Source: Chthonomonadales bacterium (GTDB taxonomy: Bacteria; Armatimonadota; Chthonomonadetes; Chthonomonadales; Chthonomonadaceae). Taken from it: DNA of 25,039 bases. The stretch spans positions 1 to 25,039 of the forward strand of contig JBBQPO010000056.1 of NCBI GenBank assembly GCA_038217285.1, given 5' to 3'. Shown piece by piece: positions 4,167 through 25,039 of this stretch. The notes beneath the pieces were generated by a model. That model did no database searches. It was not told where the DNA came from and saw nothing but the letters and a program-made list of their open reading frames with translations. Every line of letters starts with the position of its first letter. Position 1 is the stretch's first letter. The translations under genes were made by a program, and so were the position numbers.

Positions 4167-4203
4167 AGAGGAGTAGCGACGCAGAGCGCGTCGCTACTCC
4201 TCT
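4167..4203. terminator. Perfect 16-bp inverted repeat between convergent genes; probable bidirectional terminator-like hairpin
   Basis: AGAGGAGTAGCGACGC (4167-4182), loop AGAGC, GCGTCGCTACTCCTCT (4188-4203). Overlaps the cas6 stop codon; no strong U-tract on either side. Confidence 0.6.
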
Positions 4204-5006: not shown

Positions 5007-5064
5007 TCTCATCCTCCAGGACATTTTTCAGGCCACAATTTCTGTCCTATTCGAGGTCGCCTCG

Positions 5065-6195: not shown

Positions 6196-6259
6196 CTATT
6201 TCCTGCGCGCATCCGACAACCGACTGGTAACGAACCGAGATGGCAGTTATCGCACCAGT

Positions 6260-8830
6260 TCAGGACCATCCCTTGAACTTTCCGCCCACTGCTTTGCCTT
6301 TTTGATAAGTAACGTCGCACCGACAGCGATCTCCCATCTTGTATGAGATTTCGATGGTGAACTCCTCGATTTCGCCTTCAACGGTGACTACATACTTGCC
6401 AGCTTTGCCACTGCGTACAATGTTGACCCACAGACCCTTAACCATACCTTCGCGATGCTGCACCGGTTCGTCTTCTACGTAGTTGTCTTGTTGTATCGGA
6501 GGATCTTTCTGGACAACGGCGGCTGCACCAGTAGAGGTAGGCTCAACCAATTCAGGGAATCGATTGGTTTGTCGCGCAGCCACCGCCTTTGAGGCATCTG
6601 TCAAGGGACTAAGGCTGCGGACTTCCAATACATTGCCGGAGAGATGATCATACTCGGCAGGGTTTGGCAGAACCGGACGCCGTTTAAAGTCGTCAAGAGA
6701 CATCGCATCGGCAAAACCCGAGTTATCTGTGAACTCCATCAATCGCAGGAACATTCCGATGCGTTTCATGTCAGAAAGATGCTTACAGTCCCTCTGCGGG
6801 TGAATTTCATCGAGAATGTGTCTTTCAAAAGCCTTTATAGCGTCAGCTTCGGTGATTGTCTCCTTCGACCCGACATCCCAACGATCACCGGAGAATAGAC
6901 TGGAATACCTCGCTGTTCGATCTGTTAGAGTGAGTTCCGACGACAGTTTGACGGAACCCATCCCTAAGGGCTTCCCCATCCCCAATTTGTGACAGTAGTC
7001 TTTTTTTGTTTCTGGTGCCGGATTCATGGCCCAACAGAGGGCTCCTAGTTCTCTGCAACTTAAATTCTCGAAATAGACCCGGAATTTGAAGGTAACATCA
7101 GGCTTAACAGGGTTAAGCCTGGTATGCTGAGTATCCCCTTCCCCTATGTCGTCTGATGTCTCACGGATCGTCTCAAACCAGTCCTGATCCGTCTTCGCAA
7201 AACCCGTTTGTTGCCAACCCTGATGCCAGTATATCTTATGTCCTCTTAATTGGGTTTTAACGTGTCCTCCTTGGTTGCTGTCGTAGTGAAAAAGTGTTCT
7301 GCCGTAGCCCATATGGTATGACGAAGCATTTTGCGTCAAGTAGTGTTGATAGGATGTCGGCTTAGGAGAGCTTAGAATTCTGGGCGTAATCGTTCTTGGA
7401 GTCTGCGGTGTAGACGACAGCCAGATATCCCTTTGGTTCTCGATGAGACGGGCCTCAGTCACGCATACTCTTCCCGCAAAGGCACGCTCAGGCTCGCCTG
7501 CCTCTGCCACCTGCTCTGTTTTTTTGTCTCGAACGTACCCGAAAAGAGCGTCAGCATAATCGACGACTTGATCATCGACCATGGTCAAGGGAATTAGGTC
7601 GATTGGGCGCGTCTTGTAAGGCAGGCGAAACAAAGAGGCGCGTCCGAAAAAGCTCAGGTTTTCGATACCACCGATGCTTTCGGTCAAATAAAATACAGGA
7701 TCACCGTCACAGAGATAGCCTTTGTTCGTTGGATTATTGATGCCGTTTCTGTTCGCCGGGAACGCTCCCTCTTGCCATTGTGTCAATTGATCTTCGTGGA
7801 ACCGCTCCCACAGTTGTCCATTCGGGTCACCGGAACTAAGAGAATCGGGGATGCCGATAGACGTGAGACCGGATGTATTTATAAAGCCAGCCAGATCAAG
7901 ATCTTCCTTCCGAAAGAAAACGAAAGCGAGATGCTGATTTTGCATAGGGCCGGTCAAAACGAGCGTTCCTTTCGTTTTTCCGGCGACGGCTGTGAGTGAC
8001 GGATTTCGTGCCATTCTCATCTTAAGATATAAGGCATGATGTCTAGGAGGACTTCCGGCATAATTGCCGGGCTGTTCTTGAAAGAAATAATCCATTTCTG
8101 TGGAGTCCAAATCGACCCAGATATCGCGATACTGGACCCTCTCGGGGCCAGAGGCTAAGGTTACCTCCCAGAACGGCCTTATTTTATTGGCACCCTGCCG
8201 CTCATAAAGGTTGACTCCCAACAGTGGCGTTAAGGTTGGCATGTCAATCCGACCGACGATCCCCTGCTCGATGTTATATTGTCGGCCTACAGCAACGATG
8301 AAGCCCACTTTCGTTCTTGAAGAATAGACCTTCGCCGCCTTACCAGAATAAGCAGCGCCAGTTATCCAGTTAAACCCCGAAGAAACGGTTCCGCTTGACT
8401 CCTGAACGAAGTTAGACGTATAGAGTTCCCTATTTCTTATATCCCGATAGAAAAGGCGACGATCAGTGACACGGTTGAATTTACCGTAGCTAGCAATCTC
8501 GACGATGCTTCGCAGCATGCCACGAAGGCTGCTGCCTGGTATCACCGGGACATTCCCTGAACGTTTATGAAAGAACTTTGCCTTTTCTTCGTTGGAACCC
8601 TGTGCGTCCCGCCCCAAAGCGCAGCGGACGTAAAGAGGTGACCTTGTCGTAAGCATTGCATCGAAATAGCCCGTATGACGTGACGCGTCATATTTATCGT
8701 GGGGAGGTAATTTACGCGGTGTATCAGCCGCTTTTACGACGACATCATTTGCCGCGAGCGGTACAAAGTTATAAGGCGCAGACGCAACCGGATCGTTATC
8801 ATGTGAGGGATTTTCGTGTTGGATGCTCAT
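6260..8830 (-). CDS. cas7: Type III-D large Cas7-family RAMP with insertion (TIGR03986-like, Cas7-insertion)
   Basis: APYNFVPL, T.SPLYV, PVIPGSSLRGMLRS, LRGHKIYWH and the G-loop HKLGMGKPLGMGSV; 856 aa with a large internal insertion. Confidence 0.9.
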   Translation of the reverse strand: MSIQHENPSHDNDPVASAPYNFVPLAANDVVVKAADTPRKLPPHDKYDASRHTGYFDAMLTTRSPLYVRCALGRDAQGSNEEKAKFFHKRSGNVPVIPGSSLRGMLRSIVEIASYGKFNRVTDRRLFYRDIRNRELYTSNFVQESSGTVSSGFNWITGAAYSGKAAKVYSSRTKVGFIVAVGRQYNIEQGIVGRIDMPTLTPLLGVNLYERQGANKIRPFWEVTLASGPERVQYRDIWVDLDSTEMDYFFQEQPGNYAGSPPRHHALYLKMRMARNPSLTAVAGKTKGTLVLTGPMQNQHLAFVFFRKEDLDLAGFINTSGLTSIGIPDSLSSGDPNGQLWERFHEDQLTQWQEGAFPANRNGINNPTNKGYLCDGDPVFYLTESIGGIENLSFFGRASLFRLPYKTRPIDLIPLTMVDDQVVDYADALFGYVRDKKTEQVAEAGEPERAFAGRVCVTEARLIENQRDIWLSSTPQTPRTITPRILSSPKPTSYQHYLTQNASSYHMGYGRTLFHYDSNQGGHVKTQLRGHKIYWHQGWQQTGFAKTDQDWFETIRETSDDIGEGDTQHTRLNPVKPDVTFKFRVYFENLSCRELGALCWAMNPAPETKKDYCHKLGMGKPLGMGSVKLSSELTLTDRTARYSSLFSGDRWDVGSKETITEADAIKAFERHILDEIHPQRDCKHLSDMKRIGMFLRLMEFTDNSGFADAMSLDDFKRRPVLPNPAEYDHLSGNVLEVRSLSPLTDASKAVAARQTNRFPELVEPTSTGAAAVVQKDPPIQQDNYVEDEPVQHREGMVKGLWVNIVRSGKAGKYVVTVEGEIEEFTIEISYKMGDRCRCDVTYQKGKAVGGKFKGWS

Positions 8831-8835
8831 GGCTT

Positions 8836-9414
8836 TTACTCCGCATGTTTCGCTTTCAGAGGTTTTAGTTCGACGAGGCGACTTACAGTGATTGTGGCAG
8901 TTGGTTCTGAGTTCAGATAGTGCCTGATAACAAGGCGAGCCGATTCTATCGCTGATCCTGCGTTAGTATTGGTCGGCATTGATAGTGGCGGCGTATGGCG
9001 CATCCCCTGGGCTCCCTCTCTGAGGAGAGTGAACCCGTCAAGATGGTCTTCAATGTGCGTACCCCAAAGTAGTGTATCCTCATCGAAATATTCTGCGGAC
9101 TCACCTGGTACGTCGGTCGTCTTGCGCCATCCGAACTGCGCACTGTTCTTACGCCAGAGGAAAAGTTCCGATTGGGAGTTGAACACGCGTAGTTGTTGCA
9201 GGGCGGTCATGATGAAGACAGGTTGTTTGTGATCCGGGAAGTCAGGAGCGAGAACAAGTTTCCCCTCCTTGCAACTTCCCCACCGTACGCCACTATCGAG
9301 ATGAGCCAGCAAGGTAAACTCGCCCTTCGTTATAAAAGACGTCAGTTCCTTCATTGGGTCGTCTGTAACTCCAGGTTCGTGTTTAACATCACTGTATTTA
9401 AGTATTCTGCTCAT
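8836..9414 (-). CDS. csx19: Type III-D subunit Csx19
   Basis: LAHLDSGVRWG, LQQLRVFN..SELFLWR, LLWGT and L.IRHYL...SRLV motifs; canonical position between Cas7-Cas7 and Cas7-insertion. Confidence 0.85.
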   Translation of the reverse strand: MSRILKYSDVKHEPGVTDDPMKELTSFITKGEFTLLAHLDSGVRWGSCKEGKLVLAPDFPDHKQPVFIMTALQQLRVFNSQSELFLWRKNSAQFGWRKTTDVPGESAEYFDEDTLLWGTHIEDHLDGFTLLREGAQGMRHTPPLSMPTNTNAGSAIESARLVIRHYLNSEPTATITVSRLVELKPLKAKHAE

Positions 9415-10805
9415 TTTTTAGCGCTCCATGCCCCAACCGCACTCTCAAGCATTACTCTGGCTTCCTCTGATATTTGCAGTGTTCCGTCCGCCTTCTCCGT
9501 GATTGCGTAATCAACGCCATTGTATTTCACGTCTGCACGCTTGCCGTGAAGCCGTCCTCTTCCAACACTGCTTTCTCCACCTAACGGGAGGTCACCCGTC
9601 CACAGATCCTTGAGGAGGAGCAACAGGAGTCCTATTTCGCTGTCCCTACCTGCGGCACTCTCGTCTTTAGATGGCTTTAGTTCGAAGTGAAGATGGACAA
9701 TGGTGGCATTATCTCCAAAAACTGGCTGTTGATTGAACAGAAACTGGTCGCGGGCTCCTCCAGTAAAACGGTCGATGCTGACGCGGGACTGTACCAGATG
9801 GTCGATCCCCTCTTTGATTTCATGTTCCCAGACCAGAAGACGGCTTGCTTTTAGCGGCTTGCCCGAGGCTCCCAATGGCCCGAAGAGCGCATCGATGATA
9901 TCGCCTGCGTCTTGTTTATTAAGCGTATTGGCAATCTTGAGGGCACGGGCGCGCATGGCACCGGCCACAGACGTTCCGGAGAGTATCGGCACATCTGGTT
10001 TCCCAGTACGCTTAGCCTTGAGATGAACCATATCCGGAGCATTCTCGCCTCGATCCACCGAGCGTATCAAGAGAGAACCGTCGAGCCAGAACTTGGCATC
10101 CAGTACAAACCTGTTGCGCCCATCCGGTAGCGGCGTCACTTTCAGTCCGGATTTCATCGACACGCGCTGCGAGATGCCTCGTGCATAGATCCAATCCGCT
10201 AAGCCTCGTGGAGTCGTCAGGTCGTATTCTCGAACCTCCCAGATCTCCACTTTCGCCCGTCCATAGCCCCTGGTCTTGCGGCCACCTACCGGAATCTGTT
10301 CCGATTCGAAGCCCAAGAGCGCTGTTGCCAATGCCGTTCTCAGCATCGTCTCGTCGTCGTCATGGCAGATCAGCAGTTCGAAAAGGAGGGGAAAGATCGT
10401 GCCTGCCGCCCAGCATTCCCGGTTGTAAAGCGCGTCCTTTACCGCTGTTCTGGATTTGGAATCCAAACGCACACCGTCGCGGACTTCGACTTCATTACCT
10501 TCACCTAGCGAATCCTCGACGATCAACGGGCTCTGGGGCTCGGCCGCATTTGTTCCGAACAGTAACTCTGCATGCCTCGCATCGATCTCCCGAAGGTATG
10601 CTCGAACGGCTCCTGCAATAGACGATCCTGTGAGAAGGGGCTTTCCTTCCAGGGCATCTGTTAGAAGCGGCAAGTCCACCTGATCGTCGTTGTCTCCATT
10701 GCTCAGGGATGCAAGGGTTTGAAGAACAAGGCTACCTTGTACAACGATTCGTTTCTTGATTTTGCGGGAGTTCTCGGGTTGCCAACTTGCGTCCGGGAGT
10801 GTCAC
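9411..10805 (-). CDS. cas7: Tandem Cas7-Cas7 (Csm3-like x2) RAMP
   Basis: Two RAMP units: PLLTGSSIAGAVRA...VGGRKTRGYG and PILSGTSVAGAMRA...VSIDRFTGGA...LGGESSVGRG. Confidence 0.9.
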   Translation of the reverse strand: MTLPDASWQPENSRKIKKRIVVQGSLVLQTLASLSNGDNDDQVDLPLLTDALEGKPLLTGSSIAGAVRAYLREIDARHAELLFGTNAAEPQSPLIVEDSLGEGNEVEVRDGVRLDSKSRTAVKDALYNRECWAAGTIFPLLFELLICHDDDETMLRTALATALLGFESEQIPVGGRKTRGYGRAKVEIWEVREYDLTTPRGLADWIYARGISQRVSMKSGLKVTPLPDGRNRFVLDAKFWLDGSLLIRSVDRGENAPDMVHLKAKRTGKPDVPILSGTSVAGAMRARALKIANTLNKQDAGDIIDALFGPLGASGKPLKASRLLVWEHEIKEGIDHLVQSRVSIDRFTGGARDQFLFNQQPVFGDNATIVHLHFELKPSKDESAAGRDSEIGLLLLLLKDLWTGDLPLGGESSVGRGRLHGKRADVKYNGVDYAITEKADGTLQISEEARVMLESAVGAWSAKK

Positions 10806-12307
10806 GGTCGCTCCTCCTTCTCTTTCTGCATTCTTGCCAGAACCGAGTCGAGGAACCGGAGCTGCCTCTTCACCTGTTCAGCCTCTGACTCGATGTGGCG
10901 CTTGCCGCCGATTTCGGGGGGCTTAGCCCGAAACTCGGCCTTCAGCGCCTTGTAACCATCCAGCCAGGAAAGGAGATCTTCTCCTCTTGTTCCCACTCTG
11001 GCCTTCCTCCACTGCAGCGCTGTTTTCGCGGTAAGATCATTGCAGAAACGCTCGATGCACGAGAGCTTCGGACTGTCCAGGAGTGTCTCATGCAGAATGA
11101 CTTCTCGCAGTCTGGCAATCTGGCTGCTATTCAACTCTTTGCGCTGCGTTCTCGTATCCGTCAACATCCTCAATACTTTCCTCGCCTGTTGCGCTTCGTT
11201 GACCCTGCGAGAGATCAAGGTTGCTACCTCGATCTCGTCCGGATCCGAAAGTGCGATGTCGGCAGCATCGCGTTTGCCATCATCCCTGGTAAGACTCCAG
11301 TGTGACGGAGGAGAAAATACCGCTAAGCGTCCAAAACCCTCTGACCGGCGCTCTCCGATCCCGTTGATTTCGAGAGCATCAATTTCGGACTCACTCAGCG
11401 ACCTGGCAGGCAGCACGAGAACGGTGCCTTGCTTGTAGGCCAGGGCCTGTGGAAGCGGAAGGCCCCAGGTTCTATTGAATGCTCCTACCGGTGTTGTTTC
11501 GATAAAGGCGTTCTCAACGCTGATTCCGTTCTTGATTGCCTGGATCAGGGTGTCCGGGGAGACCGCAAACTGACCGAGTTCATCTCTTACCAGTGCATCA
11601 CTCAATAGAAGCACGATTTGACACATGTCATGATCTTCTTCTAAGCAAAAGGGGTGTTCTTTCCAACCTTGTTCTTCTGTCCCCGACAACGTGACATTGA
11701 CTTTGCCATAACCTGCGCGCGCGGCACCGCCCAGTCTGTCGATCTCTGTCACAAGAGCACAGATCAGGTTTGCCTCCTCGGTCCTCTCGCAAAGCGCTAC
11801 AGCCTCGAACACTTGGGATGCTGCGAGCGCATCGTATCTATATACGGTGCCGCTGTCCGGCCTGGCGGTCCCGAGCCGACGGTCTCTTGTCGTATGGATC
11901 GCAAGTTGCCGCTTTATCTCTGCAGCAATCCCCTTTCCGCTCTCATCGACGGAGGCAAAGCTAGCGCCAGGGGTTTTCCATTGCAGGTCTGAACGCAGTT
12001 GCTCAACACTTCCGTCATAGATCTCATCGTCGATTGAGAGGGTATCTTTTTGTTGCCGAAGCGAAAGTGGCAGTGGCAGCGCACGGCTATCGTCCGCGAC
12101 AATATATCCGTTCAGAAAGCGCACTTGCTCCGAAAGGAAAGAACCTAAATCGGCACACGGGTCATGTCGCAACAGGGTTGAGATGAAGGCACCGCGCAGT
12201 GCACTTCCAGGAAGGTACTCGATCGAGACCGCGCTGTTTGGATCCCCATCCAATCCCGTCAGCAATGCAGGTTCCTGTAGTTCAAGCCTATACCTGATGA
12301 CAATCAT
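10802..12307 (-). CDS. csx10: Csx10-like Cas5 RAMP with C-terminal helical small-subunit (Cas11-like) domain
   Basis: YLPGSALRGA, LGGAARAGYG, LLSDALV, GAFNRTWGLP and GIGERRSEGFG motifs; helical C-terminus with LNSSQIARLRE (the Cas11 call is an inference). Confidence 0.8.
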   Translation of the reverse strand: MIVIRYRLELQEPALLTGLDGDPNSAVSIEYLPGSALRGAFISTLLRHDPCADLGSFLSEQVRFLNGYIVADDSRALPLPLSLRQQKDTLSIDDEIYDGSVEQLRSDLQWKTPGASFASVDESGKGIAAEIKRQLAIHTTRDRRLGTARPDSGTVYRYDALAASQVFEAVALCERTEEANLICALVTEIDRLGGAARAGYGKVNVTLSGTEEQGWKEHPFCLEEDHDMCQIVLLLSDALVRDELGQFAVSPDTLIQAIKNGISVENAFIETTPVGAFNRTWGLPLPQALAYKQGTVLVLPARSLSESEIDALEINGIGERRSEGFGRLAVFSPPSHWSLTRDDGKRDAADIALSDPDEIEVATLISRRVNEAQQARKVLRMLTDTRTQRKELNSSQIARLREVILHETLLDSPKLSCIERFCNDLTAKTALQWRKARVGTRGEDLLSWLDGYKALKAEFRAKPPEIGGKRHIESEAEQVKRQLRFLDSVLARMQKEKEERP

Positions 12308-12960
12308 ATCGCCCCCTCCGGAAAAAGCAACGTAGGCTTGATCACCGCGCCTGAACCCATAAGCTCCGTTGCAAGTTTGCCTCGCCCGCGGTTTCTGCCG
12401 AGCCCGCCACGCCTCAAGCAGAGCGCACAGGCCGCCAGAAGTTGCTCGTCCATCCCCTTAGGCTCCTCGGAAAGTTTCAGTTCAGCGGTGAAGGTGAGGC
12501 TGCGTAAGACTGCCCGCTCCGTACGGAGGGAGTTCTTCACCGGCACGCCGTCTTGACCAATGGCTGTCTGACGGCGAACAGTGGTCAGGGACTCCAGAAA
12601 TTCAGCCGGGCTGATCTTGTTTCCTGTTACTTGGGCGATCACCGCCTGCTGTAAATTTCCAGGCAGGGTCGCCTGCCCGACAAACAGTAGGCCCGCGTCC
12701 TCGGTTCTGCTGCCCGGAACGCCGAAGAGCCGTTTCGCCGAGAGACGTGCTGCGTCGAGGTGAGCAGAATGGGACTCTCGGAGGCCATACAGCAGGTTGG
12801 CGCACTCTTCTACCAGTAGTCCTCGCAATGTACGCCCGCGCACAGATGGCAAGCCCGAGTGCGTGTCATACTCGACTTCGGTATCAATGAGGCCGGCTAC
12901 CCCTTCTCCCGATCCAAAAGTAGTGTCGCTTAGCAGCGTTATTTTGAGTTGATAGATCAT
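12304..12960 (-). CDS. cas7: Stand-alone Cas7-family RAMP (Csm3-like)
   Basis: LKITLLSD..FGSG.G.AGLID, GLP.VRGRTLRGLL, LFG.PG, RRQTAI and GGLGRNRGRG motifs. Confidence 0.88.
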   Translation of the reverse strand: MIYQLKITLLSDTTFGSGEGVAGLIDTEVEYDTHSGLPSVRGRTLRGLLVEECANLLYGLRESHSAHLDAARLSAKRLFGVPGSRTEDAGLLFVGQATLPGNLQQAVIAQVTGNKISPAEFLESLTTVRRQTAIGQDGVPVKNSLRTERAVLRSLTFTAELKLSEEPKGMDEQLLAACALCLRRGGLGRNRGRGKLATELMGSGAVIKPTLLFPEGAI

Positions 12961-14519
12961 GGCAGTGGCACCTGGATAAAAATATCGGCCAGTTCAATGG
13001 CGTCAAACAGAGTACATTGGGCTTTGTCCCAACCATCCTGAGGATTATCAGGCGCAAGTTCCTTCTTCAGTTGGTAGAGGATTCTGAATTTCGCTACGGC
13101 CTCGGCACCGCCGCGTAACTCTTCCCGCAGAGCCTTCATCTTATTGCGCTTTTCCGACCAATCGACATCCATCTGAAAATGGCGCGTCGTCGCCTCAACT
13201 TCCTTCCAGGAGCGATAACGTTGGGTTGAGGGTACCAGGGAGACCGGACGTTGATGCAGGCTGCCTGCCGATACTGTATATTCCGTATCTCGAATCTCTT
13301 TGATGGCGGATGACAGACCGGAGAGACCAAAATGCCAATCGAGGCAGGAACCTAAAGGTCGATCTGTCTTTTTGCGGAACTCTTTGGCGCTTTTACAGAG
13401 TTCCCCCGCCATAGCATACGCGCGGGCAAAGGGATGGTGCGATTTTACGATAGCTATTCCTGCGCAGGCTGTCAATTGATCTCCAATCAGGGCTTTTCGT
13501 TCCGGTTGGTTCGTCTCCTCTTCAAAGTACTTGAGATAGAGAGTTGCCAGAGAAATCCCGACTCTGCCATCACACACAAACGTTATGTCGTCTCCGCCAT
13601 AGACCAAGGGACGGAGAGGAAGGTACTCTCTGTGCTGAGCGCCATGACCCTCCCTGACAAGCTTTATTTGAAGACGTTCAGAGTAGTAGATTCCTGCGCA
13701 ACCCCCTTCCGGAGTAGTTACAGCATCTACTAAATCAGAGATCGTCCGCTTCATTGCCGCAATCCCCGCGTCGTTCACTGCATCTGAGAATTTCTTGAGA
13801 GCGTCGAGATAAGCGTCGTTCTGGTCTGGCTTTGGGTAGTGGTCTGCGATCTTTTGAAGCTGTTTGCCCATAGCGTTTCCGTCGGCGTGAACAATAGCAA
13901 TATAGCTCTGTTCCTCGATTGTCCGTCCGAGTTTGTCCAGGTCCTTGGGAAACGAGTACTCGCGAGCCACAAACTTGTCTTTAAGATCGTCGTCGGCATT
14001 GTCCGCAGCGTTTTCCTTCGCCAACACTTCTGCAGAAGCCTCGATAAGACGCTTGCTTCCTGGCTCCGGGCGAAATCCGACGGCAGCCAGACCAGTAGAC
14101 CGACACGCGCGGGTGATACCATATCCCAGAGCCGGACTGGTTCTTACTCGGGTGCGCTTCATGCCGTCGATCCGTTTCTGTATGGCAGGGAAGACGGTCT
14201 TTGCCATGCTGTCTGCGGCGAAATCGAATGGCTCGTGTGCCACAATCAGGTTTAGACCAGGAGCTTCCAATATCGCCTTCCGGGTCAACTCCCGTTCAAA
14301 TGCATCGGCCTCGGGTTGCGTATCAAAACATACCGCGAAGTTGCCGCCGCCTGCGTAGAGAGTTCTGGCCTTCCCATGGGATGCCGTCACCGCCGCCGTT
14401 TCCGCCCAGGGTCCTGTAGCGCACTTCACCAGATACGACGCTCCAATGTTTTCGCGCAGTCGGTTCGATCCGAATATGTAGGACTGAACCCCTGATGTGT
14501 CAACAAATGTGAGTATCAT
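12957..14519 (-). CDS. cas10: Type III-D Cas10 (Palm cyclase/polymerase, no HD domain)
   Basis: Begins MILTFVDTSGVQSYIFGSNRLRENIGAS; YAGGGN, IVHADGNAMG and LVYGGDDITFV (GGDD), AGIAIVKSHHPF motifs. Start ATG 14519 overlaps the upstream stop (ATGA); the track extension to 14681 lies inside the upstream gene. Confidence 0.93.
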   Translation of the reverse strand: MILTFVDTSGVQSYIFGSNRLRENIGASYLVKCATGPWAETAAVTASHGKARTLYAGGGNFAVCFDTQPEADAFERELTRKAILEAPGLNLIVAHEPFDFAADSMAKTVFPAIQKRIDGMKRTRVRTSPALGYGITRACRSTGLAAVGFRPEPGSKRLIEASAEVLAKENAADNADDDLKDKFVAREYSFPKDLDKLGRTIEEQSYIAIVHADGNAMGKQLQKIADHYPKPDQNDAYLDALKKFSDAVNDAGIAAMKRTISDLVDAVTTPEGGCAGIYYSERLQIKLVREGHGAQHREYLPLRPLVYGGDDITFVCDGRVGISLATLYLKYFEEETNQPERKALIGDQLTACAGIAIVKSHHPFARAYAMAGELCKSAKEFRKKTDRPLGSCLDWHFGLSGLSSAIKEIRDTEYTVSAGSLHQRPVSLVPSTQRYRSWKEVEATTRHFQMDVDWSEKRNKMKALREELRGGAEAVAKFRILYQLKKELAPDNPQDGWDKAQCTLFDAIELADIFIQVPLP

Positions 14520-15907
14520 GCGGTCTTTCCCTCCTCTTCCACAGTCTTGATCCAGTTCTTGATGTGGTCGTGCAAACCCAGCAGGTGGTCGATCCCAAAA
14601 ACCCGAATCTTCGACTTCTCGCTTAGAATGTTGCTTGCTTCCTTTTCGAGGTTCAGACAATCTGCCCTTCTGAGGAGACACACGAAGGCAACTCGTGCCT
14701 CATCGCCGCCAATCTGACGGGCCCGCATGATTGCTTCGAAGAGTTTCCACTTCGCGCGTCCCTCACCCTCATTGATTTCCCGTTCGATAGCACATGAGAA
14801 ACCGAAGAGTTGGTAGCCTCTGATTCCGAGTACATCCAGTTCAAATTTTATATCTTTGAAATTCGGGTAGGTAGGTTCGATGTTAATGCACATGTCGTGC
14901 ATTCCGAATCCGCCGTTTTTGTTCGCCTGCTTCAAACAGTGCAGAGTGTAGTGTTCCAGCCATTTTCCGCAGATCCATTCATAAAAGGTATTGATGAAAC
15001 CGACGGAGCCCACCGGCTTGCTTGCAACAAGATCCAAGTGGTTTACATTGAACGGAAGTTCGGTTCTCAGCACGTCGCGGAGGTCTACAGACAGGCCAGA
15101 AAGATCAACCGGTTGATAGGCAGCAAGATTCGCCTCCAGTTCCGATAAATACCGGGGATCATCGGACCTTAATCCTGGTTTTGCCGCTTTAAGGTGGTCT
15201 GCTATCCCTTTACTATTTTTTTCACTTTTGAATCTTTGACCGGCATATCGTCCGTCTTTAAAGTCTAGCCAGGCATGGAGTTGTGGCCCGCCAGCCTTGC
15301 TGATTCTCGCAAGTTCGACAGCGGTTTTGGGTAAGAATACCGTCTCTTGAGGCCGGCCGTTCTTGAATTTGCCCCCGTGTAGACCTAGCATTCCGGCCAG
15401 AGAGACCTGATCAGCCTGCATATCGATGTAATCTTCTTCATTGCCGGACGATGGATCTTCCATATCAAAATAGAGCCGCAGATTACGCGCACTCAGGTAG
15501 CTGAGGAGCGGCTTCCCCTTGTTGGGTGCCCAATTGGAGACAACACGATGTGCGTGAACGGCCATCGCTTTCGTCCCGGTGGTGTAGTGAAGTCCAGCAC
15601 GTTTCCCAGGGTGCAGGGCAAGCGCATTTGAAACTACCGTGCAGATACTCGACTGTCGCGATTCATCCATCAGTTCCTGGAACACTCCCACACGAACCCC
15701 TTGTCCAGCCAGTTTTTGCTCCAGGTACGGTAGAAGATAGTCAGCGCCTATCTCTTTCGTGCCTTCCGTGCATAACATTGTCACCACGCCGCCAGCCTTG
15801 ACAAGGCGTGACGCAGTGACGGCATTTGGTAGAGTATTGCCTCCAATCAGCAGAAGTAGATGCTCCGCTTTGTAATGTTCCAGGTCGTTGATGTCGATTT
15901 CGGGCAC
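14516..15907 (-). CDS. CARF + PD-(D/E)xK-type nuclease effector, Can2/Card1 (DUF1887)-like
   Basis: CARF motifs HLLLLIGGNTLPN and GLHYTTGTKAMAV; nuclease motifs GKWLEHY, FELDVLG...LFGFSC and RARQIGGDEA. Start GTG 15907 with AAGGAGG upstream (track start 16033). Confidence 0.8.
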   Translation of the reverse strand: MPEIDINDLEHYKAEHLLLLIGGNTLPNAVTASRLVKAGGVVTMLCTEGTKEIGADYLLPYLEQKLAGQGVRVGVFQELMDESRQSSICTVVSNALALHPGKRAGLHYTTGTKAMAVHAHRVVSNWAPNKGKPLLSYLSARNLRLYFDMEDPSSGNEEDYIDMQADQVSLAGMLGLHGGKFKNGRPQETVFLPKTAVELARISKAGGPQLHAWLDFKDGRYAGQRFKSEKNSKGIADHLKAAKPGLRSDDPRYLSELEANLAAYQPVDLSGLSVDLRDVLRTELPFNVNHLDLVASKPVGSVGFINTFYEWICGKWLEHYTLHCLKQANKNGGFGMHDMCINIEPTYPNFKDIKFELDVLGIRGYQLFGFSCAIEREINEGEGRAKWKLFEAIMRARQIGGDEARVAFVCLLRRADCLNLEKEASNILSEKSKIRVFGIDHLLGLHDHIKNWIKTVEEEGKTA

Positions 15908-16152
15908 GAGTGCCTCCTTCTTCTCTCTGAATGCCCAGATGTTCAAATGTGTGACGTGGGATGGAACTTTTCCTGAATTGGATTCCGGCGAGAGGAACAG
16001 TATTGCCTGGTAGATTTGCCGGACTATCTGCATTTACCTGCGTGGTAATCCGGAAAAGCGGTCAAATTATCCAAAATATTTAAGGAGGCTGGCATTTTAA
16101 TTGTTTTTGTGAGGGATGAAACTTTTCTGGGCGCGTTGCTGTCAGTGGTTGT

Positions 16153-18844: not shown

Positions 18845-18881
18845 AACGAACCTAGATTTTTGAGGAAAGGAAACAACTCCC

Positions 18882-19607: not shown

Positions 19608-20900
19608 TTGCGGGAAAGGTTAAGAAAATCGATGAATCCACCGACCTATGGCGCTGTAGAGGAGATAACATCCGTCTGGTATGGCGGCGCGGCCGCAGCT
19701 ACCGCTGTCGTGAAGCGCGGACCTGTCGTGCCGCCCTTACCCAGCCTCGGCGCATCAACGCTCCTGCCGGGAACGCTGCTGGCAGGGCGCTATCGGCTGG
19801 AACAGTCGCTGGGCGAAGGTGCCTTCGCCCGCGTCTATGCCGCCTGGGACAGTGCGCTCCACCGCTGGGTGGCTGCGAAAATCTCCCCTTCGGCAACCGG
19901 CGGACAGCTCTCGGCGGGCGAAGCCCAACTCCAGGCCGCCTGTCAGCATCCGAACCTCATGCCCCTCTATGATGCAGGGAGCGACCCGCTGCTCGGCGTC
20001 GCCTACATCATCATGCCCCTCTATCCCGGCTCCGATCTGGCCGCCACTCTCAACCGCTATGGCCCCATGCCCTTCCGCACGGCCCTCCTCTGCACCGATC
20101 AGGTCTGCAGCGCCCTGGAGTTTCTCCAACAGCGGCGCAATGCCGTGCATGGCGACATTAAACCGGCCAACATCTGGCTCACCAACAGCGGCGCAGCCCT
20201 CCTCATGGATTTCAACCTCTATGGCCTGCTCACACAGGGTGACTGTCTCCGGGCCGGCACACCGGGCTATACCGCTCCCGAGGCCTTGATGGGACGGATG
20301 GACGCCCGTTCCGACGTTTTCTCCCTTGCCTGCGTCCTCTACCAGTGCCTTGCCGGAAGCCCTCCCTTCACCGACGATGCTGCGGTTCAGGCCGGACAGT
20401 TCACTCCGCTAAGACGCCTCCGCCCTGACCTGCGCCCGGAACTCGAAGCCGTCATTCATCGCGCCCTGGCCCGGCAGCCCGAGCAACGTTTCCAATCCGC
20501 ACGAGAGTTTCAGACCGCCCTACGCCGTCCCGACACTGCGGGTCTGGAGGGACGTATCGCTCTCAACACCATCTTTCGCACATTGATGAGAATCGCCCGA
20601 CAGCTCGGCCGCATGCTCGCCGCCGTCTATCGCCTTACCTGGCGGATGCTCACAAAGTTTCTGCGTCATGCCGTCCATCGCCCCCTCCCTGCCCTTATCG
20701 AAGCCGTCGTTTTCTGCATTCTCAGCCGCGCTGCGCTCGACATGGCGCGCCAAGCCGGCCTCTACTGGTGGAGGCTTCATCAAGGCGACGTAAAGACGGT
20801 CGCTTGGGGTGCACTCTCCCTTGGCGTCGTATCCCTCGTCGGCACGATAGCAAAACCATTTCTGACCCGTCGTAACGCGCAGAGGAGAGCAAAACAGTGA
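19608..20900 (+). CDS. Hanks-type Ser/Thr protein kinase with C-terminal membrane helices
   Basis: LGEGAFARVY, VAAK, HPNL, HGDIKPANI, MDFN, GTPGYTAPE, SDVFSLAC and PEQRF subdomain motifs; two hydrophobic C-terminal segments. Start TTG 19608 or ATG 19632. Confidence 0.92.
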   Translation: MRERLRKSMNPPTYGAVEEITSVWYGGAAAATAVVKRGPVVPPLPSLGASTLLPGTLLAGRYRLEQSLGEGAFARVYAAWDSALHRWVAAKISPSATGGQLSAGEAQLQAACQHPNLMPLYDAGSDPLLGVAYIIMPLYPGSDLAATLNRYGPMPFRTALLCTDQVCSALEFLQQRRNAVHGDIKPANIWLTNSGAALLMDFNLYGLLTQGDCLRAGTPGYTAPEALMGRMDARSDVFSLACVLYQCLAGSPPFTDDAAVQAGQFTPLRRLRPDLRPELEAVIHRALARQPEQRFQSAREFQTALRRPDTAGLEGRIALNTIFRTLMRIARQLGRMLAAVYRLTWRMLTKFLRHAVHRPLPALIEAVVFCILSRAALDMARQAGLYWWRLHQGDVKTVAWGALSLGVVSLVGTIAKPFLTRRNAQRRAKQ

Positions 20901-23770
20901 ACATCAACCGTCCCAAAAACGCCGTCAGCCCCGCCGACAACCGCGCCACTGTGGTCGTTGCCGCGGCCCAGGGCGTTCAGCTGCGTATCCTGAACGGACC
21001 GGAAGCCGGTCGCCTGATCCCCGCCACAGAATTTCCCTGCCGTCTCGGAAGAGGAGACAACTGTCGCGTCGTTCTTGCTGATCCCGACGACCCACCCGCC
21101 CTCTCTCGTGAACACGCCACCCTCTCCCGACCCCGGCGTCACGCGGGCGAAATTGTCGTCACCGATCACAGCCGCAACGGCACCTGCGTCGGCGGCCAAT
21201 GGCTCGCCTCCGGCGAGGCCGAACTGCTGATGCCAGGCGAAACGCTCCAACTCGGTCCTACCCTGCGCCTCCTTCGAGAACATGCGTCCGGCCCAACCTA
21301 TCCCGCGACGGTCATGGTCCCGGAGCAAAAAGCGCAGGATCTCCCGCCGCCTGTCCCTGCAGACCTCCGGGCATTTCTGACGATGCCCGAAACATTACAG
21401 GCAGCCTGGCGGCGAGTCGCCCTGAACCGGGGCGCAGCCGGGCCCGACAACGTCACCCTCCAGGAGTTCGCCCAGACCGCCGACCGCCGACTGACCGTCC
21501 TGCGCAGCGATCTGATGCGCGGACGCTACCAACCCCTGCCGCCCCGCCTGTTCGCCGCCCCCAAACGCAGCGGAGGCGTCCGCGCCATCGCCATCCTCTC
21601 CATCCAAGATCGCATTGTCCAGCAGGCCCTGCACTCCGCCCTCCAACCTCATCTGGAGCGCTTCTTTCCGCCGTGCAGCTATGCCTACCGCCCCGGCGTC
21701 TGTGCCCACCATGCGCTGCGCCGCGTCGATACTCTCTTGAGGGAAGGCCAGACCTGGGTCGCGGAAACCGACATCGCCGGCTTTTTCGACACGATCCAGC
21801 ACACGCTCCTGCTCGAAAAGCTCACGGCCCGTATTCCCGATCCTTTCCTCCTCTCCCTCGTTGCCCGCTGCCTGGCGGTCGGTGCCAGGGCTCCCGGCAT
21901 CGGTATCGCGCAGGGCGCAGCCACCTCTCCCCTCTTCAGCAACCTCTATCTCGCGGAGTTCGATGCCGCCATGCTCGCCGGGGGCTGGAACCCCGTCCGA
22001 TACGGCGACGATCTCCTGTTCCCCGTGCGCGAACGCCATCGCGCCAGGGCTGCGCTCGCCGAAGCCGAAGGCTTCCTGCGTTCTCGCCTGCATCTGACCG
22101 TCAAACCCGAGAAGACAGGTGTCGTCTGCCTCGCCCAGGGATTTACCTTCCTCGGCTTTCACTTCACCGAAGCCGGACGGCAGGCCGCGCCCCAGGCCGT
22201 CGCCCAACTCACCGAACGCCTGCAAGCGGCCACGCCCGAAGCGGCTCCTGCCATCGTTCGCGGCTGGAAAAACTATTTTGGAGCCGAGCCTGACTCCGTC
22301 ATGCCGCAGACTATAATAGAGGAACACATCCCTCCTACACCGCAGGCTGCCTCGGACTATGACGACCAGCCGCCTCGACCGGACGCCATCCCCCTGGTCT
22401 CATCCGCCTTCGCCGCGCTGGACGCCGCCGACATTGCGCGGTTCCTGGCCCTCTTCGGCGGACGCGAAGACCTCATCGCTCGGCAAAGTGGCCAGGGTAG
22501 CCGACCCCGCTTCACAGCGAGCCACGAAAGCCTGTCCCCTGAAAGTGTTCGCCGCCACCTCGCCGGCCTGGAGACCCTGGCCACCTACCTCGTTCGCCTC
22601 GATGGAACGGTTCGTCATCTTGTCTTCGACATGGATATTGCCCAACCACCTGGACGCCCTGCCGCGCAGGAGACCGAAGACCGGGAAGGCATTCAAGACG
22701 TGAAGGCCTTTGCCGAGGACATCTACCGTGTCTGTCGCTCCCTCGGTCTCCCTGCTTGCCTCGAAGACAGCGGTCGGCGCGGGCGGCATCTCTGGATCTT
22801 CTTCTCCGAAGGAGTTGCGCCGGAACGGGCACGGCGTTTGGCGCGCTTGCTATCGTTGCGCGCGGGCTTTCCCCGTGACGGCGTTCGGCTCGAAATCTTT
22901 CCTCGCCATACCGACTGGCCCGGCCCTGAACTGGGTGACGCCGTCAAACTCCCGTTCGGTGTCCATCCCGCCACGGGACGCCGCTGCTTCTTCCTGGATG
23001 CCTCCGGCGAGCCGATCCCGGATCCCGCCGCAGCGCTGGAGCGCATTCGAACCGTCTCCCCCGCAGAAGTGGAAGGACTCATTACCGTCCTCTCCCAGCT
23101 CGAAACCGCCGGAGCAACAGAGCAAAACCTGCCGCCACGAAAAGACACTGTCCCTCCAAGCGCCGTCGATAAACTGGTCTCCGGATGTTCCGTCATCCGG
23201 ACGCTGGTCCAGCGCGCCCAGCAGACCGGCCATCTGCGCCATACCCACCAGCTCATTCTTCTCTATACGGCCGGACGCCTCGGCCCCGAAGGCGCGGCCT
23301 TTCTGCATCGAACCATTGCCAACTGCCGCAACTACGACGCCGGCATCTGTCAGGGCTACATTGATCGCCTGGAACAGAATCATCCCCCACTCGGTTGCCG
23401 CCGTATCCGCGAATGGCTGGAGGAAGAGGGCGAATCCGCGCTCTGTACTTGCCCTGCCGCACGTCGAACGCCCCTCGAACTCACCACCACGGAAACCGTA
23501 GAGGACGCCCTCGCAGCAAAGCTGAAAAAGCCGCGTTCGCCCCGCGCCCAGGCCTGCCAGACACCGCTGCCCACCGAGGTCCACTCGGCTCTGTGGCAGG
23601 AAGTCGCCGACGATCTCTTCGCCGAGGAGACCGTCGAGACTGTCCTCCCTTCCCCAGATCCAGACGAGGCCTGTCTTTCACATGCGCAGGACGACGGTCT
23701 TTTTCTGCCGGATGATTTTAACGCCCAGGCGACGGAGGCGACGGAGCCTCAGAAGGAATTGGACCTATGA
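20897..23770 (+). CDS. FHA - group II-like reverse transcriptase - AEP primase-polymerase (CAPP) - Cys-rich PriL-like CTD fusion
   Basis: FHA: LGRG..C, LSREHA, SRNGT. RT: AWRRV..NRGAAGPD, PKRSG..R, DRIVQQA, SYAYRPG, DIAGFFD, GIAQG..SPLFSNLYL, RYGDD (22001-22012), FLGF, RGWKNYF. AEP: F.GRED, VFDMD (DMD at 22628-22636), EDSGRRGRHLWIFF, EIFP, VKLPFGVH. CTD: CSVI...CRNYD...C.RI...CTC. Confidence 0.88.
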   Translation: MNINRPKNAVSPADNRATVVVAAAQGVQLRILNGPEAGRLIPATEFPCRLGRGDNCRVVLADPDDPPALSREHATLSRPRRHAGEIVVTDHSRNGTCVGGQWLASGEAELLMPGETLQLGPTLRLLREHASGPTYPATVMVPEQKAQDLPPPVPADLRAFLTMPETLQAAWRRVALNRGAAGPDNVTLQEFAQTADRRLTVLRSDLMRGRYQPLPPRLFAAPKRSGGVRAIAILSIQDRIVQQALHSALQPHLERFFPPCSYAYRPGVCAHHALRRVDTLLREGQTWVAETDIAGFFDTIQHTLLLEKLTARIPDPFLLSLVARCLAVGARAPGIGIAQGAATSPLFSNLYLAEFDAAMLAGGWNPVRYGDDLLFPVRERHRARAALAEAEGFLRSRLHLTVKPEKTGVVCLAQGFTFLGFHFTEAGRQAAPQAVAQLTERLQAATPEAAPAIVRGWKNYFGAEPDSVMPQTIIEEHIPPTPQAASDYDDQPPRPDAIPLVSSAFAALDAADIARFLALFGGREDLIARQSGQGSRPRFTASHESLSPESVRRHLAGLETLATYLVRLDGTVRHLVFDMDIAQPPGRPAAQETEDREGIQDVKAFAEDIYRVCRSLGLPACLEDSGRRGRHLWIFFSEGVAPERARRLARLLSLRAGFPRDGVRLEIFPRHTDWPGPELGDAVKLPFGVHPATGRRCFFLDASGEPIPDPAAALERIRTVSPAEVEGLITVLSQLETAGATEQNLPPRKDTVPPSAVDKLVSGCSVIRTLVQRAQQTGHLRHTHQLILLYTAGRLGPEGAAFLHRTIANCRNYDAGICQGYIDRLEQNHPPLGCRRIREWLEEEGESALCTCPAARRTPLELTTTETVEDALAAKLKKPRSPRAQACQTPLPTEVHSALWQEVADDLFAEETVETVLPSPDPDEACLSHAQDDGLFLPDDFNAQATEATEPQKELDL

Positions 23771-24762
23771 TTACCCTCTATGTCAAGGAACAGGGAGCGG
23801 GCATCCGCCGATCAGGCCAGCGTCTTATCGTCTACAAAGGTGAGAGCATACTGCAAACCGTTCGCCTCCGGGAGGTAGAGCGCGTTGTCCTTATAGGAAG
23901 CATTGATGTGTCTGCATCGTCTCAGTTAGCGTTGCTGGAAGCAGGCGTCGAAACGGTGCTCCTTTCCTACGGCGGACGATTTCGTGGCAGACTCTGTCCG
24001 GCAGAAGGCCGCAACGTGTTTCTCCGGCAGACCCAGTTTCACCGCTACGACGACACCGCCTTTCGGCTCCGAATCGCGCAGACGCTCGTAGACGCCAAGA
24101 TTCGCAACGGGCGATTCGTATTGCAGCGTTATTATCAAAACCATGCGGAACCCGCGTTAGCGGCGGCTATAGAACGGATGCAGCGCAGCCGATTGCAAGT
24201 CCAAAAGCAGGCAAACATCGAAGCCCTCCTGGGCGTAGAAGGGGACGCCGCGCGGGTCTATTTCGCCGCATTCGGGGCCATGATGCGTGCAGAATTCGTT
24301 TTTACCCTTCGCTCTCGGCGTCCGCCCCGTGACCCGGTCAACGCCCTTCTGAGCTTCGGCTACACCCTTCTCACTACGGAACTCACGGGATCTGTGGCCG
24401 CGCAGGGCCTCGATCCCTATGTCGGAGTGCTCCATGATCTCGACTACGGTCGCCCCTCTCTGGCGCTCGACCTGCTGGAAGAGTTTCGGCAGCCGGTCAT
24501 AGATCGCCTGGTCCTGAGTCTGATCAATCGGGGCGTTATGAAACAGGCAGACTTCGACGATCGGGGTGAGGCAGGGGTTTGGATGTGCGACGAAGGGCGT
24601 ACCCGTTTTCTGGACTACTACCACCGTGCACTGGAGACGCCCTTCGAGGACAGAACAGTGGGCGGCAAAACGACATTTCGCGATCTTCTGATGCGGCAGG
24701 CCCAACGAATGCGAGCCGCGCTACAAGGCGAGAGTGAATACGAGCCTTATACTCCGCGATAA
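23767..24762 (+). CDS. cas1: CRISPR-associated integrase Cas1
   Basis: LLGVEGDAARVYF, RRPPRDPVNALLSFGY, GLDPYVGVLH and SLALDLLEEFRQPVID motifs; ATGA overlap with the upstream fusion gene. Confidence 0.96.
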   Translation: MITLYVKEQGAGIRRSGQRLIVYKGESILQTVRLREVERVVLIGSIDVSASSQLALLEAGVETVLLSYGGRFRGRLCPAEGRNVFLRQTQFHRYDDTAFRLRIAQTLVDAKIRNGRFVLQRYYQNHAEPALAAAIERMQRSRLQVQKQANIEALLGVEGDAARVYFAAFGAMMRAEFVFTLRSRRPPRDPVNALLSFGYTLLTTELTGSVAAQGLDPYVGVLHDLDYGRPSLALDLLEEFRQPVIDRLVLSLINRGVMKQADFDDRGEAGVWMCDEGRTRFLDYYHRALETPFEDRTVGGKTTFRDLLMRQAQRMRAALQGESEYEPYTPR

Positions 24763-24791: not shown

Positions 24792-25039
24792 ATGCCTCAG
24801 ACAACAAAAACGCGCTATGTCCTTTCCTACGATGTGACCGACGACAGCAACCGGACGAAATTGTCGAGGCTACTATTGGACTACGGCGAACGTATTCAAA
24901 AAAGTGTGTTCGAAGCCGATTTAAGCGCCGGAGAAATGCAGGAGATTCTGATAAAGGCGGCGAAATACCTTTCTGACAGCGACAGTTTGCGATTCTATCC
25001 CCTCTGTCGCACCTGCGCAGGGAAGGTAGTTTCCTTAGG
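24792..25039 (+). CDS. cas2: CRISPR-associated Cas2 (3' truncated by window)
   Basis: Hand translation: MPQTTKTRYVLSYDVTDDSNRTKLSRLLLDYGERIQKSVFEADL...DSLRFYPLCRTC; YDV, R.QKSVFE and DSLR.Y are Cas2 signatures. Not in the ORF track. Confidence 0.93.
   Translation, partial: MPQTTKTRYVLSYDVTDDSNRTKLSRLLLDYGERIQKSVFEADLSAGEMQEILIKAAKYLSDSDSLRFYPLCRTCAGKVVSL

Follow-up and report, generated by a model that had tools for sequence, protein, structure and literature searches.

An FHA-headed CRISPR-associated reverse transcriptase and primase-polymerase travels with its own membrane kinase, suggesting that spacer capture is switched by phosphorylation

When and from what cells acquire CRISPR spacers is an open question, and uncontrolled acquisition risks autoimmunity. 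Here, a 25,039-nucleotide stretch of DNA from a Chthonomonadales bacterium (GenBank assembly GCA_038217285.1, contig JBBQPO010000056.1; the whole stretch is called the window) was analyzed around one long gene, whose product joins an FHA domain, a reverse transcriptase (RT), an AEP primase-polymerase (Prim-Pol), a C-terminal domain (CTD), and an acidic tail. We refer to it as FHA-RT-CAPP, CAPP being the CRISPR-associated primase-polymerase. The locus forms a compact cassette of kinase, FHA-RT-primase, Cas1, and Cas2, to which relatives add a CRISPR array. Its features, and the effector block that lies divergent from it, are as follows.

19632..20900, plus strand: Hanks-type Ser/Thr protein kinase with an N-terminal TxWY motif and C-terminal hydrophobic (membrane) segments (Pfam Pkinase, 109.9 bits)
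20897..23770, plus strand: FHA-RT-CAPP gene, 957 amino acids, with FHA, RT, AEP Prim-Pol, CTD, and acidic tail (GTG start; Pfam and NCBIfam matches)
20936..20950, plus strand: candidate DxRxT motif near the N terminus, residues 14 to 18 including Thr18, ahead of the FHA core (conserved; putative phospho-acceptor)
20984..21277, plus strand: FHA domain, residues ~30 to 127 (Pfam FHA, 1.9e-9; Yop-YscD_cpl at 30 to 127)
21389..22234, plus strand: group-II-intron-like RT domain, residues 165 to 446, with YGDD at 369 to 372 (RVT_1, 5e-27)
22418..23077, plus strand: AEP Prim-Pol catalytic domain, residues 508 to 727, with DMD at 578 to 580, SGRRGRH at 625 to 631, and E666 (AEP-TOTE, 1.5e-29)
23159..23479, plus strand: Cys/His-rich CTD, residues 755 to 861 (within the NF040561 match at 508 to 861; C764, H782, C810, C834, C850, C852)
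23594..23620, plus strand: conserved tail motif WQEVADDLF, residues 900 to 908, inside the acidic tail (pattern count across lineages)
23767..24762, plus strand: cas1, unfused (Cas_Cas1, 5e-93; TIGR00287, 272 bits)
24792..25039, plus strand: cas2, cut by the window end (CRISPR_Cas2, 5.5e-19)
4194..16033, minus strand: type III-D effector and accessory block, divergent from the adaptation operon (Pfam, NCBIfam, and PADLOC matches)

The open reading frame (ORF) at 20897 to 23770 on the plus strand starts with GTG and runs through 957 codons without interruption. Its FHA domain (PF00498) was matched at residues 49 to 120 with 38.2 bits against a Pfam cutoff of 20.7, and a profile built from the FHA regions of six loci matched 37 solved FHA domains, including those of RNF8, Rad53, mycobacterial FhaA, GarA, and OdhI. 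RVT_1 (residues 222 to 423, 95.4 bits) and AEP-TOTE (residues 542 to 726, 103.7 bits) both scored over their curated Pfam cutoffs. On the RT domain, PADLOC gave the label "RT" at 3e-77, and the nearest solved structure was the GsI-IIC RT 6ar1 (6e-38). The group II intron RT/maturase model TIGR04416 reached 233.7 bits, under its cutoff of 300, and was matched only at model positions 2 to 295 of 353. Pro-rich linkers join the domains, the acidic tail forms the C terminus, and the FHA domain and its linker place ~160 residues ahead of the RT.

The second half of the protein was assigned to the CAPP family. The NCBIfam model NF040561, "CRISPR-associated primase-polymerase type A1," matched residues 508 to 861 with 227.5 bits (cutoff, 200); the match takes in the Cys-rich CTD and leaves the first ~120 positions of the model unmatched. 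No Pfam match to a TPR was found in the 957-residue protein, the N terminus of which is filled by FHA and RT. PADLOC labeled the AEP half "PrimPol, adaptation polymerase." When the AEP domain was compared with the Marinitoga CAPP structures 7nqd and 7nqf (3e-24), DMD aligned with their DID and the sGxxGxH motifs aligned as well. D177 and D179 of the Marinitoga enzyme (MpCAPP) are the residues mutated in the inactive AxA protein (PMC8211822; here and below, papers are cited for passages of their text), and the aligned DID probably corresponds to these two, the PDB chain numbering being different from that of the full-length protein. A sequence search returned no solved structure matching the CTD and tail. 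Taken together, the 957-residue protein is very probably a CART-CAPP, i.e., a CRISPR-associated RT (CART) fused to a CAPP.

A preliminary description of this DNA, made from its letters alone, had proposed a four-domain FHA-RT-AEP-CTD ORF with an acidic tail, intact key motifs, and kinship to CAPP and CART-CAPP. The domain matches over cutoff agree with its coordinates within a few tens of bases, YGDD, D-M-D, and SGRRGRH are all present, and the kinship is borne out by NF040561 and the Marinitoga structures. It had also raised the possibility of a misassembled junction. This was checked against 23 independent full-length relatives, 36 to 62% identical, which align collinearly across every domain, and against five separate genome contigs (L001 to L005) carrying the same architecture. 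Thus, an assembly chimera or a chance ORF is excluded.

A word-indexed search returned 66 relatives of the protein. FHA, RVT_1, and AEP-TOTE are precomputed together in 25 of the 66, the window's own protein counted, and FHA with RVT_1 only in two more; P0007 and P0016 have no listed FHA match, yet carry the GR, SRxH, and NG motifs, which gives 29 FHA-bearing proteins. When 1.84 billion representatives were searched exhaustively, 26,323 matches were obtained at E<=1e-3, mostly other RTs, with 1,473 at E<=1e-30; in 14 of the best 150, the alignment begins no later than residue 36 of the query and thus covers the FHA domain. The 194 fetched proteins with a near-complete RT domain were sorted by architecture: 113 are RT-first RT-AEP proteins, 35 belong to the FHA class, 25 are RT-Cas1 or plain RT, 11 have a hydrophobic N-terminal domain, and 10 have other architectures. 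Among the hosts are Capsulimonas corticalis (phylum Armatimonadota), metagenome-assembled genomes of Armatimonadota, Armatimonadaceae, and Chthonomonadales, and one such genome of Candidatus Poribacteria. Database names vary among "hypothetical protein," "FHA domain-containing protein," and "group II intron reverse transcriptase/maturase." NF040561 scores were over cutoff for the relatives in L004 (227.4) and L001 (203.5) and under it for those in L002 (179.3) and L005 (154), which may account for the inconsistent naming. Eight further loci from the genome scan (L006 to L013) held other RTs, 25 to 40% identical across the RT only. A plasmid search with the full-length query brought up group II intron RTs only, and none of the 5,000 best records covered at least 80% of the query.

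The residues expected to matter for function are strictly kept. In an alignment of 24 sequences, G51, R52, S70, R71, H73, N94, and G95 are invariant in the FHA domain; the Gly-Arg, Ser-x-x-His, and Asn-Gly residues among them (G51, R52, S70, H73, N94, and G95) presumably form the phosphothreonine pocket. Also invariant are Y369 and D371 in the RT (D372 is kept in at least 90%), D578, D580, G626, G629, H631, and E666 in the AEP domain, C764, H782, C810, C834, C850, and C852 in the CTD, and W900 and F908 in the tail. Ahead of the FHA core, D14 and T18 of the DxRxT motif are invariant in all six loci, and 21 of the 29 FHA-bearing relatives have the exact D.R.T pattern.

The kinase gene lies directly upstream. 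It starts at ATG 19632 in the database form, with an alternative TTG at 19608, and its Pkinase score of 109.9 bits compares with a cutoff of 31.7. Its TGA stop codon overlaps the GTG start codon of FHA-RT-CAPP, with GAGGAG just before, and the two genes are predicted to be translationally coupled. The presence of a dedicated, coupled Ser/Thr kinase gene upstream gives the FHA domain a rationale. Across 32 orthologues, the catalytic Lys, the αC Glu, HGDxKPxN, DFN, and GTPG..PE are invariant, and the kinase is thus predicted to be active; it is of the non-RD type (HGD), with DFN where DFG is usual. Kinase P0003 has hydrophobic segments at 359 to 380 and 397 to 415, and a hydrophobic segment beyond residue 330 was present in 18 of 19 kinases examined. 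The motif T-x(1-2)-W-Y/V/I was found in 28 of the 40 kinases having a long enough N terminus.

This arrangement recurs wherever the gene context was read. In the five related genome loci (L001 to L005), the gene directly upstream of FHA-RT-CAPP encodes a Pkinase in every case, and the gene directly downstream is cas1 in all four that have downstream sequence. The kinase's own upstream neighbor varies among loci (Cas6, a CARF protein, or unrelated ORFs). In C. corticalis, the kinase and enzyme genes carry adjacent locus tags (CCAX7_35680 and CCAX7_35690). The kinase family is distinct: 55 clusters were found at E<=1e-67 (43 to 73% identical), followed by a gap to generic kinases at E>=6e-42. 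For 16 of 31 close relatives (P0007 to P0037), a kinase-family match was found on an equally long longest contig, which is a proxy for the same contig and not proof of it. Pairwise distances of kinase and enzyme were compared in 15 pairs, namely, 14 of these 16 matches plus the window's own pair (two pairs with a partial or FHA-less RT-CAPP were omitted). The Mantel correlation was 0.90, and none of 2,000 permutations reached as high a value. This shows co-inheritance of kinase and enzyme, not contact between them.

On the other side of the enzyme, the ATG of cas1 overlaps its stop codon (ATGA), and the Cas1 proteins of the window and L004 are 56% identical. The preliminary description had spoken of a stand-alone cas1. 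The gene is indeed not fused to the RT, but cas2 follows at 24792 and a type III-D block lies in the window; these, together with the coupled upstream kinase, the most informative feature of the locus, were missing from that account. In L004 and L005, cas1-cas2 are followed by a CRISPR array of 37-nucleotide repeats ending in TTGAAAC, and L004 also encodes Csx19, a TIGR03986 RAMP, and Csx15. Thus, both loci that show effector genes, the window and L004, are associated with type III-D.

The nearest relatives without an FHA domain have in its place an N-terminal domain that is hydrophobic and bears the conserved motif RLLYWSVRxYGW. Such proteins numbered 11 at first and 40 by pattern after further search. 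Proteins P0038, P0040 to P0042, P0084, P0090, P0095, P0108, P0116, P0120, P0168, and P0302 to P0345 were assigned to this sister lineage. A Kyte-Doolittle hydrophobic segment lies within the first 150 residues in 10 of the 11. Members from Fervidibacter sacchari, Thermocrinis sp., and Heliophilum fasciatum bear the NCBI name "CRISPR-associated primase-polymerase type A1," and the lineage also occurs in Desulfofundulus and Armatimonadota records. A homology between this N-terminal domain and the C-terminal membrane region of the kinase was considered and rejected: hhalign gave E values of 0.05, 0.02, and 0.08 with growing alignments, compared with 0.036 for a reversed-sequence control. Two short motifs of the two regions do line up.

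A quick maximum-likelihood tree of the RT domain was built from 93 rows, which took in every FHA, hydrophobic-N-terminus, and odd form together with 27 of the 113 RT-first proteins; 10 of the 25 RT-Cas1 or plain RT proteins served as the outgroup. The FHA and hydrophobic-N-terminus forms fell on one 54-row branch (SH-aLRT support, 97), apart from the sampled RT-first proteins, and 34 of 35 FHA rows lay on one side of a branch with support of 80. Three FHA-less rows (P0025, P0029, and P0030) fall next to near-identical FHA rows and probably represent truncated gene calls. With two rows misplaced, the outgroup did not form a clean monophyletic group. The tail pattern Wxx[VIMLA]xxx[LMIV]F was present in 30 of 31 FHA forms and 34 of 34 hydrophobic-N-terminus forms, compared with 4 of 108 RT-first proteins, and by this pattern count it marks the joint clade. 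Most RT-first proteins have a TPR between RT and AEP and a Mu Gam/Gp157-TOTE C terminus instead of the WxxVxxDLF tail. We see in the DLF end of this tail a likeness to the short acidic peptides used for docking, as in clamp-binding or SSB-tail motifs.

DxD and sGxxGxH were retained together in 32 of 35 FHA forms, the remaining three being short at the C terminus, and likewise in 39 of 40 hydrophobic-N-terminus forms and all 113 RT-first proteins. In contrast, YxDD was missing from 27 of the 113 RT-first proteins (e.g., YSDN; among P0043 to P0212). In part of the RT-first lineage, the RT site rather than the primase site therefore looks degenerate, judging from these motifs, which is the reverse of the published idea of an inactive Prim-Pol.

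As reported previously, RT-AEP fusions tied to CRISPR are known as CRISPR-RT "clade 12" (PMC8632793) and as CAPP_A type 2, or CART-CAPP (PMC8211822, PMC10415136). CAPPs of Marinitoga and Dysgonamonadaceae prime, polymerize, and displace strands, and MpCAPP binds Cas1 (PMC8211822). CRISPR RTs, including the RT domains of the Caloramator and Geobacillus CART-CAPPs, start DNA chains de novo on both RNA and DNA, and the Prim-Pol domain of two CART-CAPP fusions was inactive, which the authors suggest to be common (PMC10415136). RT-Cas1 systems acquire spacers from RNA (10.1101/2023.09.01.555893). These passages correct the preliminary description on two points. Its mention of an N-terminal TPR in the Caloramator CART-CAPP applies to the Marinitoga-type CAPP, the Caloramator protein being described with an N-terminal RT (PMC8211822). 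Its suggestion that the primase enables primer-free synthesis runs against the published assays, in which the RT itself primes.

The enzyme class is thus known, but none of the main texts searched describes the FHA head, the obligatory kinase partner, or the membrane-linked sister form. The words "FHA" and "kinase" do not occur in the main texts of the two papers by Zabrady et al. (PMC8211822, PMC10415136). Nor did any main text searched combine FHA with CAPP, Cas1, RT-Cas1, or CRISPR plus primase, a result on which supplements may bear: Supplementary file 2 of PMC8211822 lists an "FHA domain-containing protein" from C. corticalis (WP_165864649) and from Ca. Poribacteria (HID55197). That survey therefore took in members of the FHA family without discussing them. 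An N-terminal FHA domain had been called unusual in the preliminary description, which holds in view of these texts and of the counts above (35 of 194 RT-bearing relatives with FHA versus 113 RT-first). Kinases near CRISPR loci are noted in general terms only in the relevant passages (PMC10910872, PMC6546367), and the passages of the CAPP and CRISPR-RT literature consulted make no mention of an adaptation polymerase anchored in the membrane.

From the observed architecture, motif conservation, gene order, and kinase-enzyme co-divergence, we infer the biochemical steps, the phosphorylation sites, and the signal of the kinase. An FHA-bearing RT-primase that always travels with its own membrane kinase suggests that spacer capture is switched by phosphorylation. 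In the reading that we favor by a modest margin over even odds, the protein is a prespacer polymerase of the CART-CAPP kind, and the partner kinase gates its activity, assembly, or membrane location through binding of phosphothreonine by the FHA domain. That kinase and FHA domain are functionally coupled at all is, taken by itself, rather probable. The enzyme would be the polymerase arm of a type III-D adaptation module. By analogy with the characterized enzymes, the RT would copy invader RNA or DNA into a first DNA strand, starting the chains itself; the AEP-CTD half would make the second strand, or fill gaps or displace strands at the integration site; and Cas1-Cas2 would integrate the resulting DNA into the array.

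The partner kinase would create the phosphothreonine that the FHA domain reads. In GarA and OdhI, an N-terminal Thr motif before the FHA domain folds back once phosphorylated. A similar switch may operate here, with phospho-Thr18 of the DxRxT motif binding the FHA domain in cis; binding in trans would instead dimerize the enzyme, in place of the self-associating TPR of the Marinitoga CAPP. As a second option, the FHA domain would dock on the phosphorylated TxWY motif of the kinase, which would bring the enzyme to the membrane. Under either option, the kinase signal would license spacer capture in time or place. A fuller picture, which we hold only tentatively and think more doubtful than not, is infection-licensed, membrane-sited adaptation. 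The membrane-embedded non-RD kinase would sense envelope disturbance or genome entry and phosphorylate itself (TxWY) or Thr18, and the FHA domain would recruit, dimerize, or un-inhibit the RT-primase. Prespacers would then be made only during infection, beside the site of nucleic acid entry. The sister lineage would reach the same membrane placement constitutively, via its own anchor.

Several observations weigh against phosphorylation-gated prespacer synthesis. In the CART-CAPP fusions assayed in print, all synthesis was by the RT and the Prim-Pol was inactive, so a catalytic role of the AEP domain is not assured here. Neither candidate site is universal: 8 of 29 FHA-bearing relatives are without DxRxT, and 12 of 40 kinases are without TxWY. 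Gene context was read directly in only six loci (the window and L001 to L005), and the Mantel correlation would also be expected from shared descent of linked genes without physical interaction. In L005, the kinase copy (L005 1915-2859) is only 314 amino acids long, has neither activation segment nor C-terminal hydrophobic region, and may reflect gene decay or faulty assembly. Neither the window nor L001 to L005 showed a phosphatase gene, which leaves reversibility without an explanation. Finally, the top PADLOC match of the kinase is the generic defense kinase PD-T4-6.

The first of these points leads to the alternative that survives best, which we consider possible but clearly less probable than phosphorylation-gated synthesis by both halves. 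Here, the RT half alone would be the working polymerase, both priming and extending, and the AEP domain, CTD, and tail would act as a scaffold without catalysis, keeping the RT on Cas1-Cas2; kinase control could still apply. Prim-Pol alone and RT-dead full-length proteins were both inactive, a condition that the authors propose to be common in such fusions (PMC10415136), and MpCAPP touches Cas1 through a part other than its CTD (PMC8211822). On the other hand, D578, D580, G626, G629, H631, and E666 would hardly be expected to stay invariant in a mere scaffold across 24 sequences that are only 36 to 62% identical. Since DxD and sGxxGxH are retained nearly throughout while YxDD is lost from 27 of 113 RT-first proteins, selection is at least as strict on the AEP site as on the RT site. 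Moreover, DRT7 provides a case in which RT hands off to Prim-Pol inside one protein, the two domains working in relay (10.64898/2026.04.18.719102).

The PADLOC result on the kinase raises a different alternative, namely, that it is a defense or stress signaling kinase of the abortive-infection or interference-control type, with FHA-RT-CAPP as one docking partner or substrate and no specific gating of adaptation. Its best PADLOC matches are indeed the defense kinases PD-T4-6 (1e-57) and Mad6; a kinase cluster, C3a189, is already among the type III accessory genes (PMC6546367), and the vicinity of CRISPR loci is reported to include kinases along with vWA and transmembrane proteins (PMC10910872). 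However, the C3a189 match is at the generic kinase-domain level only (2e-22 versus 1e-57). In all six loci the kinase stands directly before FHA-RT-CAPP rather than among the effector genes; its stop codon and the enzyme's start codon overlap, and its family is as narrow as that of FHA-RT-CAPP. This alternative is thus improbable.

Less probable again is an FHA domain that acts as a phospho-independent interaction or oligomerization module, replacing the TPR of other CAPPs, beside a functionally unrelated kinase. It would fit the self-association mediated by the N-terminal TPR of other CAPPs (PMC8211822) and the variability of the module within the family, which may be FHA, a hydrophobic domain, nothing, or a TPR placed between RT and AEP. 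It would leave unexplained why G51, R52, S70, H73, and N94, the presumed phosphothreonine-holding residues, are invariant, why a dedicated kinase is present in every locus read, and why kinase and enzyme diverge together. A stand-alone antiphage RT-primase like DRT7/UG10, making a toxic or signaling DNA instead of prespacers, is very unlikely: DRT7 also combines RT and AEP Prim-Pol, its primase is structurally closest to Marinitoga CAPP (10.64898/2026.02.16.706125), and the PADLOC model RT_UG10_large matches the window's protein at 6e-19, but this match is confined to residues 527 to 851 in the AEP-CTD part, the domains come in the opposite order, the RT is of the group-II-intron-like type with RT-Cas1 and CRISPR RTs as its nearest kin, and the gene overlaps cas1 and precedes cas2 and, in relatives, an array.

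The rest of the window was also surveyed. The minus-strand block encodes Cas6, CARF-RelE, a TIGR03986 RAMP, Csx19, a Csx7-like RAMP, Csx10, a further RAMP, Cas10, and CARF-PDDEXK. The CARF-RelE (5065-6195, minus strand) and the Card1-like CARF-PDDEXK (14516-16033, minus strand) flank the effector genes as accessory effectors of the cyclic-oligoadenylate type, and CARF-RelE matches the PADLOC CARF7 model at 2.7e-118. No CRISPR array, tRNA gene, or Rfam family, group II intron RNA included, was found within the window, and an array, if there is one, would lie past its end. A promoter and terminator scan of the window gave background levels. The G+C fraction is 0.49 to 0.56 in the effector block (window positions 5000 to 17000), compared with 0.60 to 0.67 in the kinase/FHA-RT-CAPP/cas1 block (17000 to 24000) and in the host-like genes at 1 to 5000; by this contrast, the effector and adaptation modules may have separate histories.

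Between the divergent promoter region and the kinase, three plus-strand ORFs (16263-19541) have no family assignment. The first (307 amino acids) has a C terminus weakly resembling sigma-70 region 4 (E = 0.043), the second (575 amino acids) has four hydrophobic segments, and the third (219 amino acids) is lipoprotein-like, with DxSxS and SDGDND motifs that recall the MIDAS site of vWA domains. A vWA identity for this last ORF (18882-19541) found no support from Pfam, NCBIfam, or PADLOC even at E values up to 10 and was left as no more than a weak idea. The three ORFs are not upstream of the kinase in L001, L004, and L005. At the left end lie host-type genes, mreB (181-1203, plus strand; 4.9e-146) and a gene for a TPR and clan AA aspartyl protease protein (2514-4133, plus strand). 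Minus-strand ORFs of 521 and 490 amino acids that overlap them have no family match and are probably artifacts of high G+C content.

If the fuller picture is true, infection-licensed adaptation would give the first case of spacer acquisition under dedicated kinase-FHA control. A signaling pair hard-wired to an adaptation polymerase makes the question of spacer timing directly testable by point mutants, and one family member belongs to a named species, C. corticalis. The locus also bears on a published puzzle, namely, why a Prim-Pol with no apparent activity in vitro is retained in RT-CAPP fusions. Because the Prim-Pol active site is invariant in the window's family, this domain may need activation, for instance, by phosphorylation or by a partner. 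In addition, a phospho-switchable RT-primase could be of use in RNA-recording tools.

Among the closest known systems is CART-CAPP (Caloramator australicus CCJ33120 and Geobacillus lituanicus; CAPP_A type 2; Zabrady et al. 2021, 2023), which shares RT, AEP Prim-Pol, and CTD with the window's protein and likewise stands beside cas1-cas2 of type III systems with a presumed prespacer-making role (PMC8211822, PMC10415136). In the passages describing them, these proteins begin with the RT, and neither FHA nor a kinase is described, whereas the window's protein has the FHA domain first. In the RT tree, it also branches apart (SH-aLRT, 97) from those RT-first RT-AEP proteins that were sampled, the Caloramator sequence not being among the rows. 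The Marinitoga CAPP (CAPP_A type 1; PDB 7nqd and 7nqf) has an AEP domain and a Cys-rich CTD homologous to those of the window's protein and also adjoins cas1-cas2, but it has an N-terminal TPR and no RT where the window's protein has FHA and RT. RT-Cas1 and Cas6-RT-Cas1 (Marinomonas mediterranea; Thiomicrospira, PDB 7kft) also pair a group-II-intron-like CRISPR RT with Cas1 in type III systems. The window's RT matches 7kft at 5e-30 and is 28 to 44% identical to RT-Cas1 matches; there, the RT is fused to Cas1, whereas in the window it is fused to the Prim-Pol and cas1 is separate.

DRT7/UG10 is described as having RT and a CAPP-like Prim-Pol in one chain, as in the window's protein, but with an RT of the Abi/UG class, the order primase-CTD-RT, protein priming, and no cas genes. 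Pairs of a Hanks-type membrane kinase and an FHA protein are known from GarA/OdhI with PknB/PknG and from PpkA-Fha1 of type VI secretion. They regulate metabolism, cell wall synthesis, or secretion, and we know of none that is fused to a polymerase or linked to CRISPR; GarA, OdhI, and FhaA are among the solved FHA domains matched by the window's FHA profile. The sister lineage with the hydrophobic N terminus has the same RT, AEP, CTD, and WxxVxxDLF tail as the window's protein and differs from it in the N-terminal domain.

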